64,000 bases of DNA from a virus (lineage: Duplodnaviria > Caudoviricetes), in IMG/VR virus record IMGVR_UViG_3300044557_000185, positions 32,001-96,000 of that record. One strand, 5' to 3'. Shown here one piece after another: positions 3,156-50,704 of this stretch; positions within the stretch are counted from its first letter, which is position 1; each line of letters starts with the position of its first letter. Below the pieces are notes generated by a model that was not told the DNA's origin, did not search any database, and saw only the letters and a list, made by a program, of their open reading frames with translations. A program made the translations under genes and the position numbers.

Positions 3156-3241
3156 ACGACGTTGTTCTATAGTGATCTAGAATCTGAAGTATTATAAATT
3201 ATATATACTTAATACTAGCGATACACAGATAACAACGTCGT
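3156..3241. repeat. 86-bp imperfect palindrome, copy 1
   Basis: ACGACGTTGTTCT...TATAAATTATATA...AACAACGTCGT. Confidence 0.95.
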
Positions 3242-3282
3242 TAATCTGAGGGCATACTAGATTCTTATCTATAAATGAATAT

Positions 3283-3317
3283 AAAAAATGAGCAGTTTTA
3301 AGTCATGCTCAGGACTT
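3283..3317 (-). terminator. pseudoknot-capable element plus U-tract after the major capsid gene
   Basis: AAGUC/GACUU and UGAGCA/UGCUCA pairings followed by U6. Confidence 0.6.
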
Positions 3318-3337
3318 TTGAAGCTAGATGGCTAAGA

Positions 3338-4306
3338 TCAAGCAGTCTTCTTAATCTTTACAACACCCATTGAGTTCAGTACGATGCAAGACACGAGTTC
3401 ATCGTAAATCGCCCTCAGCATAAAGTTGCTAACTGCCGTAGGGTCCAAATTTTGACTGATTCCATATCTTGTGCTCCACACACCGAGCATGTCTGATGGA
3501 GCAGTAACGTATACAGTATCCTTCGGAACAGTGATAGCCTGAAGGACATTGAAGTCACCGAATGTTGTTCTCTTGTATCCAGCGAAGTAGTCATCCTTGA
3601 ATGACACACCTGCAACAGTCAGATCCCAGCGGTACATGTCAAGAGCTGCACCAGGAGAGGTGATGATGTTCTTTACATTGACCTGCTGATCTAGGATATG
3701 AGCTTGTGCATCTAGGAACGAATCAAGAGTGAATGTATTCGAAGACAGAGTCACATCATTGTCTGTATTGCCTGGATGCAATTCTTTCCAAGCATCGACA
3801 GCAAGATCAAGACCATCATAAAGCAAAGCATCTTCTTGCTTTGCAAGCTGCTGGACAGTCATGTTCTCTGCATAGTCGATAGGAGAAGCAGCAAGAAGCT
3901 CGATATCAGTTCTAGAGATCTCGTATTCTGCAGCAATTCGACCGTACTGCGGAATTACCTGCTTGCCTTCAATTCTGCTGACTCTTACTTCACCATCGTT
4001 AGAGTTGAGTGCATAAGCTGCAGGAAGCTCATCGAGAACAGGATAAGCACGAATAGTACCCTGAGGCACCATGTCTTCTACTAGTGCCTGACGAGCAATG
4101 CCTTCGTAATTGACACGAATCGAAATCGGGCCAACCATAGCTTCAGCAAGCTTAGCAGATCCACCTTCACGGAAGATCTGAGCTAGCTTGGCTCTCTTCT
4201 GGTCTTTAGTAAGAGTTCGCTTTGCAGCAATCTTCTTCTGTGCTTGTTCAGCATATTCTTTGGCTAGTCTAGCCTTGTGTTCTGTATTAGTCATGATTTT
4301 TGACAT
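3338..4306 (-). CDS. major capsid protein
   Basis: 322 aa, follows scaffold-like and decoration-like genes, terminator downstream; LAEAMVGPI..RVNYEGIARQALVED resembles Bxz1-like capsid proteins. Confidence 0.85.
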   Translation of the reverse strand: MSKIMTNTEHKARLAKEYAEQAQKKIAAKRTLTKDQKRAKLAQIFREGGSAKLAEAMVGPISIRVNYEGIARQALVEDMVPQGTIRAYPVLDELPAAYALNSNDGEVRVSRIEGKQVIPQYGRIAAEYEISRTDIELLAASPIDYAENMTVQQLAKQEDALLYDGLDLAVDAWKELHPGNTDNDVTLSSNTFTLDSFLDAQAHILDQQVNVKNIITSPGAALDMYRWDLTVAGVSFKDDYFAGYKRTTFGDFNVLQAITVPKDTVYVTAPSDMLGVWSTRYGISQNLDPTAVSNFMLRAIYDELVSCIVLNSMGVVKIKKTA

Positions 4307-4321
4307 AAGCCTTTCTTAAAA

Positions 4322-4810
4322 TCAAGCGTTAGTGATGACTGACGGATCTAGAAGCTGAATGACGATAGAATCATCATCAAGTTCTAGCAGATTGCCAACT
4401 CTAGCGCCAGCCTTGGAAGTAAGCTTTCCATCAGCACCAGCATTGACTGGAACTGCTACGCCAGTTCCTGGGAAAGTGAAAGCAGCATCAGCAGCAATTG
4501 CTTCTTTAGAAATGCGAACAGTAGTGTTGTTGCTGCCAACAATCACGGTGAACTCGTCATTCGGGCCAAGCTGGTTGACGCCGCCATTGCCGAACTTTCT
4601 TGCATAGAAGACAGAAGCTAGACCGAAAGGCGTGCCTGTGCCATCATAAAGATCGACTACATTGTTGCCAAGATGCTTCATGACCATCCCGGGAAGAATC
4701 TCTTTGTCGTTAGGAGTCTTTAGAGTGCCAGCGAACTGAACTTCATTGCTGTACTCTACCTTAGCAGTTCTATGAAGAAATGCATCTTTTACAGTATTGA
4801 CTGTGATCAT
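4322..4810 (-). CDS. head decoration/cement protein
   Basis: ILPGMVM motif, 162 aa, directly upstream of the capsid gene. Confidence 0.65.
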   Translation of the reverse strand: MITVNTVKDAFLHRTAKVEYSNEVQFAGTLKTPNDKEILPGMVMKHLGNNVVDLYDGTGTPFGLASVFYARKFGNGGVNQLGPNDEFTVIVGSNNTTVRISKEAIAADAAFTFPGTGVAVPVNAGADGKLTSKAGARVGNLLELDDDSIVIQLLDPSVITNA

Positions 4811-4844
4811 CTGTTAAGTCTTTCTATTTGATCGTTGTCGGTTA

Positions 4845-6161
4845 TCAGATTAGTGCCATGTCGATAGAAGAATCGAACGATGGAGTAGCAGAAGCTAGCT
4901 TCAATGGCTTGCGAGCTTCTTTTCTTGCTTCAAAAGCTGCAGTCTTAGCTCTAGCAATTCGATTATGATTTTCTGCAATTCGCTTAGCAGCTTTCAGAGC
5001 AGAAGCGCGCTTAGCATTCAAAGATGCAGTCTTGTCATCTTTAGCATCGTCTTCAGGCTTGCCAGTCTTTTCAGAAATGAACTTCAATGCGTCAGTTGTA
5101 TTGTCGAAATCAGTTGTCTCGCCATCGATAGTGACGTGAGTGCCATCTTCATCTGAAGTCATAGACAGATTAGCTTTCTTTACAGAAGCCTTACGAATTC
5201 TCTTTGCTGCTCTATGCTTAGAAGCTACTGTGCCACCATTGTCAAGAATGATGTCGTAGACGTCTTGCTTAGCTTCATCCATAGAAGAGTAAGAAGCTTC
5301 ATCGTTGCCATTGACTTCAAGCTCGACATGACCATCAGAATACTGAAGCAGCACGTAGTCATCATCATTAGCTTCATCTGTCATTGTCTGAGCATCAGTG
5401 ACGTCTTCCATTCCTGGATAGTCAGAATAGTCTACAGTAGTCCATTCTGCTTTCTTTACAGAAGCCTTGACAGCTGCAAGTCTCTTAGCAGAAGCTTTGG
5501 AGACGGCTTTGACAGCAACAAGCTGATTCTTGACAGAAGCCTTAGTCATCGAGGACATTCTTTCGATAGCATCAAATCGATTGGCTTCAGCAATGACTCC
5601 AGCCTTGATGTAGGAATCTACAAGACGCATCACAGATGCAGTGCTAGCTGTATCTTCGGAAGGCTTGCCAGGCTTAGGAGTCTTAGGAGCATCAGTCTCA
5701 GAATCGACAGGATAGTCAGGCTCTGCTGAACCGCCATCTTCGTTGTCGCCTACAGGCTGATCTGGATCCTTTGCATCTGAAAGATTGTCAATCAAATCCT
5801 CATAGCCTACGCCATTGTCTTTGACGTCGTCTAGAATCTCATCAGCTGATTTTGGAGCAGTAGCTTCATCAGCAACTCTCTTGCTTGCATTTCTTTTCAT
5901 GTATCGGCCCTTTCCTGTCTCACATGATTTAGTGTCACTATTGATAGCTTTCAAGACTTTGTCGAATCCGTCAGATATTGCTTTCGCAATGTCTTCGTTA
6001 TCTCCATCATCTTCATCGCTTGCAGAGCTTTCATCTTCTAAAGCTTCATTAGAATCTGACTCTACGAAATCGTTGTCTTTGCCGGAGTCTTCTTCAGCAG
6101 TCACGTCATCAGTGTCATCTAAGACATCTGAATCGTCTATGCGATCAGTATCTGTTTCCAT
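4845..6161 (-). CDS. scaffold-like acidic head protein with basic linkers
   Basis: Very acidic, repeated KASVKKA linkers, located in the head operon. Confidence 0.6.
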   Translation of the reverse strand: METDTDRIDDSDVLDDTDDVTAEEDSGKDNDFVESDSNEALEDESSASDEDDGDNEDIAKAISDGFDKVLKAINSDTKSCETGKGRYMKRNASKRVADEATAPKSADEILDDVKDNGVGYEDLIDNLSDAKDPDQPVGDNEDGGSAEPDYPVDSETDAPKTPKPGKPSEDTASTASVMRLVDSYIKAGVIAEANRFDAIERMSSMTKASVKNQLVAVKAVSKASAKRLAAVKASVKKAEWTTVDYSDYPGMEDVTDAQTMTDEANDDDYVLLQYSDGHVELEVNGNDEASYSSMDEAKQDVYDIILDNGGTVASKHRAAKRIRKASVKKANLSMTSDEDGTHVTIDGETTDFDNTTDALKFISEKTGKPEDDAKDDKTASLNAKRASALKAAKRIAENHNRIARAKTAAFEARKEARKPLKLASATPSFDSSIDMALI

Positions 6162-6244
6162 GAAGCTCTTTTCGGTAAAAGAATCAGAATGCTTTTATTT
6201 CCGATCCATATAATTATATTATAACATCTTATCAGCATTTCACA

Positions 6245-49634: not shown

Positions 49635-49663
49635 ATTATATAACATAATCTATAGAATGTAAA
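49635..49663 (-). promoter_or_regulatory. sigma70-like early promoter
   Basis: TTTACA-N17-TATAAT. Confidence 0.75.
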
Positions 49664-49755
49664 ATCGATATCGCAATCATATACGCAATCATCGTCTGAA
49701 CTGCATTTTGCTGTCATATCGCTTTTTCAATGATAGCACATCATCAGTCTATGTC

Positions 49756-49962
49756 TTATTGTCTATAGCAATCATAATCATGTGGATTGTCTGGAACTTG
49801 ATCAGTCACATCAATCCAAGTCTTTCCTGCAAGCTTCCAGTACTTTGGGTCAACGCAGTCATCTTTGACTTTTGGAAGCTCGCCAATGTATTCGAATTCG
49901 CCATCTGGAAGACATCCGCAAGTGTGCTTGTATTTTGGATGCCGAAGCTTTCTCATCTTCAT
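49756..49962 (-). CDS. hypothetical protein
   Basis: Small ORF with RBS-like sequence. Confidence 0.55.
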   Translation of the reverse strand: MKMRKLRHPKYKHTCGCLPDGEFEYIGELPKVKDDCVDPKYWKLAGKTWIDVTDQVPDNPHDYDCYRQ

Positions 49963-49980
49963 GATCGTCTTTTCTTTCTT

Positions 49981-50205
49981 TCAATTGTCGAACTTCTCAA
50001 TGATCAATGCCACTATGCCTGTCACGATCGTAATAACAAACACAACTACGAATACTGCTAACACAATCAAAAACGGTGCATACAACGGCAATGTAACAAG
50101 CCACCAAGACCAGTCTATGTAATGCATCAGTTTCAGAACTATGAACGCTACACCAAGCAGTTCTAGGAATGATATTCCAGAATAGTATGTTTTGCTATCT
50201 CGCAT
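49981..50205 (-). CDS. small phage membrane protein
   Basis: LLGVAFIVLKL..YIDWSWWLVTLP, a recurrent phage membrane-protein motif. Confidence 0.75.
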   Translation of the reverse strand: MRDSKTYYSGISFLELLGVAFIVLKLMHYIDWSWWLVTLPLYAPFLIVLAVFVVVFVITIVTGIVALIIEKFDN

Positions 50206-50279
50206 TTTTGCTTTCCGTACAGATCTAAGTATTTTTGCTTATAGTCATATCGCATAGCAACTTATTGCAAATGTAAGAT

Positions 50280-50561
50280 TCACATAGAACCATGCATGAA
50301 TTTGTCTTTCAGCATAGTCGTAAAGCATTCTATGATTTCAAACGTATCTAGACCATCTTCAGTCTTTTCTGCAATCATCTTTCTGATTTCTGCTTCTTCT
50401 TGATTGTCTAATTCGACTAGACTTACTGCATAGTCACGCAATGCATCTGAAGCTTTTCTGAGTCCATCAACGTATCCATCGTCAGTCTTGATTGAATTGA
50501 CTATAGCAAAAGCTTCCATCATGTCATTAATGCCATGCTTTGTCAATGCTTTTTCAGTCAT
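50280..50561 (-). CDS. hypothetical protein
   Basis: ORF with RBS-like sequence. Confidence 0.6.
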   Translation of the reverse strand: MTEKALTKHGINDMMEAFAIVNSIKTDDGYVDGLRKASDALRDYAVSLVELDNQEEAEIRKMIAEKTEDGLDTFEIIECFTTMLKDKFMHGSM

Positions 50562-50618
50562 TTAAGTTCTTCTTTCTATTTCATATATTAGATATGAATC
50601 TAATGTATCCTCAGTGTT

Positions 50619-50704
50619 ACGACGTTTATCTCTATGAACTTCAAGAATACAGTCTATATAATTATATATACATGCTATTCTAAGTCATCAGAGAACAATC
50701 TAGT
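50619..50704. repeat. 86-bp palindrome, copy 10 (inverted)
   Basis: ACGACGTTTATCTCTATGAAC...TATATAATTATATA...CAGAGAACAATCTAGT. Confidence 0.92.

Follow-up and report, generated by a model that had tools for sequence, protein, structure and literature searches.

Large lytic phages switch gene blocks, and the signals that delimit their transcription units are little known outside a few model phages. A stretch of 64,000 nucleotides (nt) from an uncultured phage raises this question in a concrete form. The stretch, hereafter the window, comprises bases 32001-96000 of a 108,378-bp record in the IMG/VR database (IMGVR_UViG_3300044557_000185), and ten of its intergenic gaps contain copies of an 86-bp palindromic element. 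What are these copies for? In this work, the palindrome is found to belong to a polar module of about 120 bp, which is located at gene ends and whose orientation predicts the presence of a separate promoter beside it. We interpret the element as a boundary cassette between transcription units, with a polar promoter inside; this is the explanation we prefer, although we hold it with slightly less than even confidence.

A polar module of fixed geometry

The dyad begins with a left arm (positions 1-21, ACGACGTT-(GT/TA)-TCTCTGTGAAC) and a left spacer of 15 bp, often CTTAGAAT..., which are followed by the core TATATAATTATATA (positions 37-50), in which AATT is invariant, by a right spacer, also of 15 bp, and by a right arm GTTCACAGAGA(T/A)(A/C)AACGTCGT (positions 66-86). 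The arms form an inverted 21-bp pair around an AT-rich centre, and their own centres are 65 bp apart, or about six helical turns. The symmetry continues outward for a few bases (AGAtT.ACGACG...CGTCGT.AaTCT), and the upstream gene's stop codon can fall in this extension, as it often does in co-directional copies. An earlier note on this DNA, made from its letters only, had given the arm as TCTCT(G/A)GTGAAC, which is one base too long, as most copies read TCTCTGTGAAC; its literal 22-mer matches only 2 copies at ≤3 mismatches.

Past the right arm lies a tail of about 34 bp, (A/T)A(A/T)TCTG..GATATAC.GAG.....TCTAATA. It contains two direct CTGAnnA boxes 11 bp apart, the first of them 20 bp past the CAGAGAT box of the right arm, so that the boxes of tail and right arm stand in helical register. 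The tail motif was never found away from a dyad; the real unit is therefore polar and about 120 bp long. The internal asymmetry of the dyad agrees with the side of the tail in 84 of 87 copies. Since this agreement persists despite the exchange of sequence between copies through their arms (described below), it implies that internal polarity is under selection. The right arm, core and tail are more conserved than the left arm, which has been replaced in two or three surviving copies. A small hairpin formed by the tail only was also considered and not adopted, as its mean z-score is only -0.9, with compensating stems in differing registers in some copies and none in many.

Repeat search and extraction recovered the ten copies listed in the earlier note, at 3156, 7476, 20325, 21803, 31312, 39708/9, 42210, 45697, 46924 and 50619. 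Eight are exactly 86 bp long, as claimed; the copy at 20325 has 85 bp, and the one at 39708 has a replaced left arm and one extra base. The reported division into six copies pointing one way (plus strand: 3156, 7476, 20325, 31312, 39708 and 45697) and four pointing the other (minus strand: 21803, 42210, 46924 and 50619) was reproduced. No copy lies inside a gene, all ten being in intergenic gaps of the open reading frame (ORF) map of the window, on which the minus strand carries nearly all genes; outside the window, one plus-strand ORF extends 17 nt into an arm. The arm pattern gave 0 matches in 100 shuffles, and its chance expectation is zero. In the list below and throughout, a copy is called 'same' when its tail points toward the downstream gene and 'anti' when it points toward the upstream gene; RBS denotes a ribosome-binding site.

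3156-3275, plus strand: copy 1, dyad 3156-3241 followed by the tail; anti, with the tail toward the upstream minus-strand gene and a promoter (3087-3121) on the downstream side
7476-7595, plus strand: copy 2, dyad 7476-7561 followed by the tail; anti, one of two such copies without a separate promoter; RBS/ATG 25 nt past the left arm
20325-20443, plus strand: copy 3, 85-bp dyad and tail (TGATGATATACT); anti, with a TGATATAAT promoter 34 nt past the left arm
21769-21888, minus strand: copy 4, dyad 21803-21888 and tail 21769-21802; same; upstream stop 3 nt off the left arm, RBS and ATG (gene start 21768) right after the tail
31312-31430, plus strand: copy 5, at a convergent junction, 3 nt past the stop of the plus-strand gene 30895-31308; the tail abuts the stop of the minus-strand gene 31431-33932
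39709-39828, plus strand: copy 6; anti; outer left arm replaced beside a tnpB insertion, with core, right arm and tail intact; the orthologue in the related genome G003 is intact
42176-42295, minus strand: copy 7; same; upstream stop 4 nt off the left arm; the promoter scan picks ATGACT-N16-TATAAT inside
45697-45816, plus strand: copy 8; anti; TTTACT-N17-TATAAT promoter 16 nt past the left arm
46890-47009, minus strand: copy 9; same; divergent left arm (..CAGATTGATCTAG..); next ATG 41 nt past the dyad
50585-50704, minus strand: copy 10; same

The genes around these copies include those for polymerase, primase, tail and lysin proteins. A profile of the ten copies, run on the whole genome, a check that the earlier note had proposed, found 15 full copies and one half copy, with nhmmer E-values of 1e-20 to 1e-34, and an exact-pattern scan of IMG/VR located the element in further uncultured phage contigs. 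Lineage A, with about 93% nucleotide identity, comprises the phage of the window (G000), G003 and G005, which carry 16, 14 and 13 copies; lineage B comprises G006, G008, G001, G004 and G007, about 95% identical to one another, with 11-19 copies. Proteins of the two lineages are only 25-60% identical, yet the arms are nearly identical. In five genomes, 59 of 68 copies are exactly 86 bp long, and the module is present at about one gene junction in eight.

The element had been proposed as undescribed, and the searches agree. Rfam at permissive E-values gave no relevant match, only two at chance level, including a microRNA model on copy 2; nothing similar occurs in 50,697 GenBank phage records, against which 7.9 kb of the region also gave zero blastn matches; the exact right-arm 20-mer has 0 matches in 185,579 prokaryote genomes; and a targeted literature search returned no description of an equivalent element. 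As the earlier note had recognized from the spacing of the copies, this is not a CRISPR array; a tandem repeat and a protelomerase site are likewise ruled out by spacing, copy number and the absence of the enzymes. What is new is the sequence family, together with its tail and the rule that its orientation follows.

Element orientation and promoters

Two promoter classes occur on the gene strand. Class 1 is a strong sigma70-type promoter, TTTAC(A/T)-N17-TATAAT, and class 2 is an extended -10 sequence, TGATATAAT, found 9 times in the window vs 1.7 expected; of these, 7 are on the gene strand. Searches detected neither a phage RNA polymerase nor a sigma factor, a weak negative result, as the PF00940 control matched 0 control genomes, and a 2418-amino-acid (aa) protein has a carbohydrate-binding module without a polymerase match; host polymerase signals should therefore apply.

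Element junctions were scored for independent promoters in G000 and G008. Such promoters accompany 9 of the 11 anti junctions whose next gene is co-directional (6/7 in G000, 3/4 in G008), vs 3 of 19 same junctions (Fisher, p = 0.0012). At element-free junctions the background is 15-18% (15/98 in G000 and 16/90 in G008). The independent promoters of anti copies sit 14-36 nt past the left arm; those of the window are:

3087-3121, minus strand: TTTACT-N17-TATAAT, just downstream of anti copy 1
20281-20289, minus strand: extended -10 TGATATAAT, just downstream of anti copy 3
39673-39681, minus strand: extended -10 TGATATAAT, downstream of anti copy 6, now heading tnpB
45648-45682, minus strand: TTTACT-N17-TATAAT, downstream of anti copy 8

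The site in G003 orthologous to copy 6 likewise has an extended -10 TGATATAAT. The copies had been described as oriented regardless of gene direction; both orientations do occur, but the presence of a separate promoter can be predicted from them. On these counts, transcription of the downstream genes appears to start at every element junction, either through the element or through a neighbouring promoter.

The placement of the module relative to coding sequences is also regular. In same copies, the next ATG lies 19-67 nt past the dyad with its RBS in the tail end, and the distance from the upstream stop to the left arm is usually 3-5 nt in G000 (19 nt in one case) and at most about 30 nt in G008, apart from two of about 208-225 nt. 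In anti copies of lineage A, the upstream stop is found at the tail end, 33-36 nt off the right arm of the dyad. Both clear convergent junctions of G000 carry an element.

Within the element, the core holds a perfect, nearly invariant TATAAT. The left arm contributes a -35-like hexamer, 16-17 bp farther upstream, which matches at 3-5 of 6 positions and is of the (A/T)TGACT or GTGAAC type; inside the copies, a consensus scan chooses (A/T)TGACT-N16-TATAAT. Two ordinary intergenic gaps also contain the TATAATTATATATA string on its own, ahead of genes and on the gene strand, and several copies have TGATATACT in the tail. The tail was rejected as the sole promoter, as its -10-like hexamer is no better kept in same than in anti copies. 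The 108-kb genome has one canonical intrinsic terminator (window 43304-43328, minus strand; a GC-rich 9-bp stem and a T run), which is not an element and lies directly upstream of the promoter 43251-43279, in the same stop-then-promoter layout. The arms of the element are followed by TAATTCTG or AAAT, not by the U tract of an intrinsic terminator.

The wider promoter set is recorded here for completeness. Class 1 sites, all on the minus strand, are at window positions 3087, 29973, 43247, 45648, 49631, 52143, 56334, 57767 and 62920, and their -10 lies inside a 15-bp near-palindrome, GTTATATAATATAAC. Class 2 sites on the gene (minus) strand, mostly intergenic, are at 1244, 12825, 14855, 20281, 28426, 39673 and 44585. 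Downstream of the consensus promoter 29977-30005, the interval 29475-29970 is gene-poor, and an Rfam scan gave no match there.

Double-stranded site or RNA hairpin

A palindrome just after a stop codon may be read as RNA as well as DNA. The arms could pair in a read-through transcript as a long imperfect hairpin and provide an RNase III cut, a polymerase stop or 3'-end protection, as at T7 RNase III sites or in REP elements of bacteria, while transcripts started at the core would carry one arm and escape. We consider such RNA punctuation unlikely, yet it explains the positions of the elements equally well. Whichever way they point, the copies stand right behind stop codons, and each of the two convergent junctions has one, in a genome nearly devoid of canonical terminators; the terminator-then-promoter layout of anti copies fits. 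Single copies are also predicted to fold at -16 to -32 kcal/mol, compared with about -11 for shuffles, although any palindrome would fold stably.

The pattern of conservation, however, is not explained in this way. At each i/87-i position, the proportion of paired copies is the one expected from column composition; paired cells amount to 68.5% vs 66.9% in shuffles (105 copies), a small excess that is inseparable from orthologue kinship. In the outer 15 bp, complementarity is no higher within a copy than between copies (single genomes, p 0.6-0.9), and in a third of the copies the CG-rich outer stem has mismatches without compensation. Complementarity between the spacers is only about one half, and RNAalifold on the 105 copies returned an empty consensus with no pairs, i.e., no conserved covarying structure. 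In addition, no U tract follows the stem, the identity of the arms across distant lineages is far above what a stem needs, and the polar tail is left unexplained. The inner 21 bp (positions 16-36) do show a weak excess of within-copy complementarity (p 0.04-0.12 per genome), driven by a few copies. On the per-position pairing, the shuffles and slides, the cross-copy comparison and the RNAalifold result, a selected hairpin was rejected as the main constraint: the symmetry arises from conserved sequence, and pairing is not what selection maintains.

The absence of compensation, together with arms that are nearly identical across 25-60% protein identity, favours sequence-specific recognition of double-stranded DNA by a predicted two-fold symmetric protein. 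The fixed distance of 65 bp between arm centres suggests that both arms, and probably the core too, would be contacted together. The symmetric binding protein proposed in the earlier note thus gains support from the conserved, uncompensated arm sequence and the fixed spacing.

A candidate for this protein had been named as well:

60223-60684, minus strand: 153-aa tandem helix-turn-helix (HTH) protein (Pfam HTH_23/HTH_28/HTH_7; PHROG transposase/invertase DNA-binding region)

Its two HTH motifs are of the transposase/invertase/resolvase kind, and such a bipartite arrangement could suit the reading of a 21-bp asymmetric arm. BLAST at E<1e-5 found no lineage B orthologue, while a relaxed search found a 185-aa tandem-HTH protein at the syntenic position in lineage B (26% identity over 66 aa), with a Sigma70_r4-like and an ISL3-type HTH. 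The gene of the 153-aa protein lies just upstream of the large-terminase gene, and the product could equally be a packaging protein. It is a possible binder of the element, and should be taken as a lead rather than a finding.

From the geometry, the conservation, the lack of compensation and the orientation statistics, we infer binding, transcription initiation and any termination as follows. A two-fold symmetric, sequence-specific protein, probably phage-encoded, would bind both arms across a bendable core; this would explain the fixed length and a conservation far above that of the neighbouring proteins. Host RNA polymerase would start at the core and/or tail promoter and head toward the tail, and co-directional copies would drive the next gene, whose RBS and ATG stand right behind the tail. 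The occupied dyad would limit read-through from the upstream unit in either orientation, so that reversed copies would need a separate promoter past the other arm, and it probably also regulates the embedded promoter.

Several points weigh against the boundary cassette. Many copies have a weak -35-like hexamer (GTGAAC, GTGATT), and the core lacks a TG extension; in the -10-like hexamer of the tail, the critical last T is often missing, and this applies to same copies as well (TATAGC, TATACA). Upstream of ten other sigma70-type promoters there is no terminator and no element, and two anti copies have no separate promoter. The promoter proposed for anti copies would run antisense into the 3' end of the upstream gene with no evident benefit, and no substantial small ORFs were found downstream of anti tails. 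The block to read-through is inferred from positional statistics alone, the complementarity of the inner segments leaves some room for a hairpin, and the gene calls are simple longest-ORF calls, with statistics drawn from two lineages only.

If the boundary and promoter function is true, the module would serve as a small, portable part for 'stop and restart', read by a binder of its own, and dispersed palindromic repeats would be a general means of organising phage transcription. What is observed is a clade nearly without ordinary terminators that keeps one rigid 120-bp module conserved far above the surrounding proteins.

The remaining gene content concerns the phage as a whole. The virus is myovirus-like, encoding a baseplate wedge and a tail lysin, and its terminase is about 30% identical to that of Mycobacterium phage I3. 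The sequencing runs holding the stretch are DNA runs from bioreactor-sludge and wastewater metagenomes, with no RNA runs listed. Nucleotide-metabolism genes are dense (YfbR-like deoxynucleotidase, nucleoside 2-deoxyribosyltransferase, dCTP deaminase, dUTPase and a dCMP deaminase-like protein; window 60665-62274 and 41506-41937, minus strand, 30895-31308, plus strand, and L066:2508-3554, minus strand), and glycosyltransferases are encoded between the helicase and the primase and also at window 47218-48609. Together, these genes would fit a phage with modified DNA. Copy 1 is adjoined by a 603-aa HNH/homing-endonuclease-like gene (window 1291-3102, minus strand) that has a promoter of its own; it is present in G000 and G005, while G003 has instead an unrelated 225-aa ORF on the opposite strand.

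Mobility, origins and known systems

The element might also be a selfish or recombinogenic repeat, similar either to a miniature inverted-repeat transposable element (MITE) with 21-bp terminal inverted repeats or to the homology patch of a promoter-early stem-loop (PeSL) cassette, which recombination would spread and homogenise, with any regulation incidental. We regard this as improbable, although part of the evidence points that way. The 21-bp arms are inverted like terminal repeats, and a transposase-type tandem-HTH protein is encoded. Lineages A and B share positions only partly, and orientation differs at some orthologous junctions. At three lineage B sites, the internal 44 bp are inverted or swapped for those of another copy, while the arms, tail and flanking genes are the same. 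Examples from genomes about 95% identical are an inverted interior (L056:12821-12958 vs L071:5950-6087) and one replaced by another copy's (L057:16005-16142 vs L050:5245-5382). Because interiors change in this manner between unchanged arms, exchange between copies through the arms, in either orientation, does occur. In lineage A, elements coincide with synteny breakpoints more often than expected (7 of 21 intergenic ones vs 12% of junctions, p=0.009). As a side observation, two copies stand in tandem about 120 bp apart in G006 (L067:5074-5339), in a hypervariable stretch in which G001, G007 and G008 differ in copy number and orientation.

In the lineage of the window, transposition of the element is nevertheless unsupported. 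The earlier note had suggested that target-site duplications with empty alleles would mark a MITE; instead, lineage A shares all 14-15 comparable sites and orientations at about 93% identity, whereas tnpB moved four times, lineage B has internal swaps but no clean empty sites, and the flanks extend the palindrome rather than forming direct repeats. Six-frame searches for Y1_Tnp, DDE_3, Resolvase and Phage_integrase matches found no tyrosine or serine recombinase and no Y1 or IS630-type transposase. TnpB is the only transposase detected in the phage, and no cognate enzyme was found in its genome; a host enzyme is possible. The breakpoint enrichment is mostly due to three tnpB events and is absent from lineage B (3/42). 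Exact length, an invariant core and a rule linking orientation to promoters are not expected of a parasite, and the lack of the right-arm 20-mer in 185,579 prokaryote genomes also weighs against this reading. We conclude that the element is not a MITE and that it is without gene shuffling of the PeSL type.

The tnpB insertions offer a natural example in which TnpB elements have repeatedly inserted at a single, defined cis element. Two tnpB genes (Cas12f1-like TNB, OrfB_IS605; 64% identical mutually) lie at window 38371-39666 (minus strand) and, outside the window, at genome 19094-20380 (plus strand, L064), with no TnpA alongside. G003 and G005 have one tnpB each, at still other sites, which gives four places in lineage A. 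An element adjoins three of these sites, and a stand-alone core-like TATATAATTATATA promoter adjoins the fourth. In three of the four cases, the left junction comes right after a T(T/C)AC belonging to an arm or to a sequence resembling one (after TTCAC, GTTAC and ATCAC), two copies end in GTAGTTCAT at the right, and in three events the insertion takes the place of 41-68 bp through the resident -10. The second tnpB is bracketed by a perfect, verified 36-bp inverted repeat (genome 18906-18941 and 20392-20427, L064/L065) consisting of right spacer, right arm and the start of the tail; a duplication of the arm in inverted orientation follows from the single, intact element that G003 and G005 carry there.

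Multiple replication origins, or enhancer-origins, are a still less probable explanation, in which an initiator would bind the arms and phased boxes and melt the AT-rich centre of about 44 bp. The argument for them is one of architecture, namely inverted sites on either side of an alternating A/T centre, a fixed spacing and additional boxes that keep the helical register, in a phage with its own replication set (PolIII alpha, a DnaB-type helicase, a DnaC-like loader, primase, a RecA-like protein and a junction resolvase); no recognisable initiator was found among its genes. Placement exactly at gene ends and correlation of orientation with promoters are not required of an origin, the cumulative GC skew is monotonic across the window, and we know of no phage precedent for 15-19 origins in about 100 kb, which also counts against this reading. 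The earlier suggestions of multiple origins, resolvase or protelomerase sites and packaging anchors are thus unsupported, as the recombinases are absent and the positional and promoter evidence points to transcription. A broader scheme, which we consider a long shot, would have one phage protein on 15-19 phased dyads partition the genome into insulated domains, each site being a regulated bidirectional promoter or insulator as well as a melting or entry point for replication and recombination. The element would then be a counterpart of hr/ori enhancer-origins, with its TTCAC arms as preferred TnpB landing sites.

Among known systems, herpesvirus oriS/oriL and baculovirus hr regions are eukaryotic-virus origins or enhancers bound by UL9 and IE1, respectively. 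They share with the present element inverted protein-binding sites around an A/T centre where spacing matters, and hr regions are also multi-copy within a genome; their origin or enhancer activity is known, whereas here the resemblance is architectural. The REP/BIME, ERIC and Correia palindromes of bacteria are chromosomal, conserved mainly as structures and often mobilised, by RAYT or, in the case of Correia elements, with TA duplications. They too are imperfect palindromes just after stop codons in either orientation, and some carry promoter hexamers or act on mRNA ends. The family described here, in contrast, is found in phages only, is conserved at the level of sequence and has no duplications.

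The nearest parallels in behaviour are the PeSL cassettes and SPBRE. The PeSL cassettes of T4-type phages combine a GC-rich stem-loop shown to terminate transcription with a consensus early promoter; they are oriented with the genes, are concentrated in hyperplastic regions around ORFans and delimit indels (PMC2839356, PMC4122927). The present element is likewise a small, repeated intergenic module of large myovirus genomes in which a stop-like palindrome is joined to a predicted sigma70-type promoter and which undergoes recombinational exchange. It differs as an AT-rich 86-bp dyad, conserved in sequence and placed in both orientations among core structural and replication genes, without a GC-rich terminator stem or the bounding of indels and ORFans, and with breakpoint enrichment in lineage A only, mostly driven by tnpB. 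SPBRE, in turn, is a 15-bp repeat of the temperate phage SPbeta and the operator of its master repressor MrpR (PMC10516654). The module described here is a 120-bp unit of fixed geometry, in a phage that encodes no integrase-fold protein, and its binding is predicted only. The two nevertheless have in common dispersed repeats in intergenic promoter regions of a large phage, and SPBRE was itself predicted in silico and later shown to be bound by a phage protein derived from a recombinase fold (PMC10516654).

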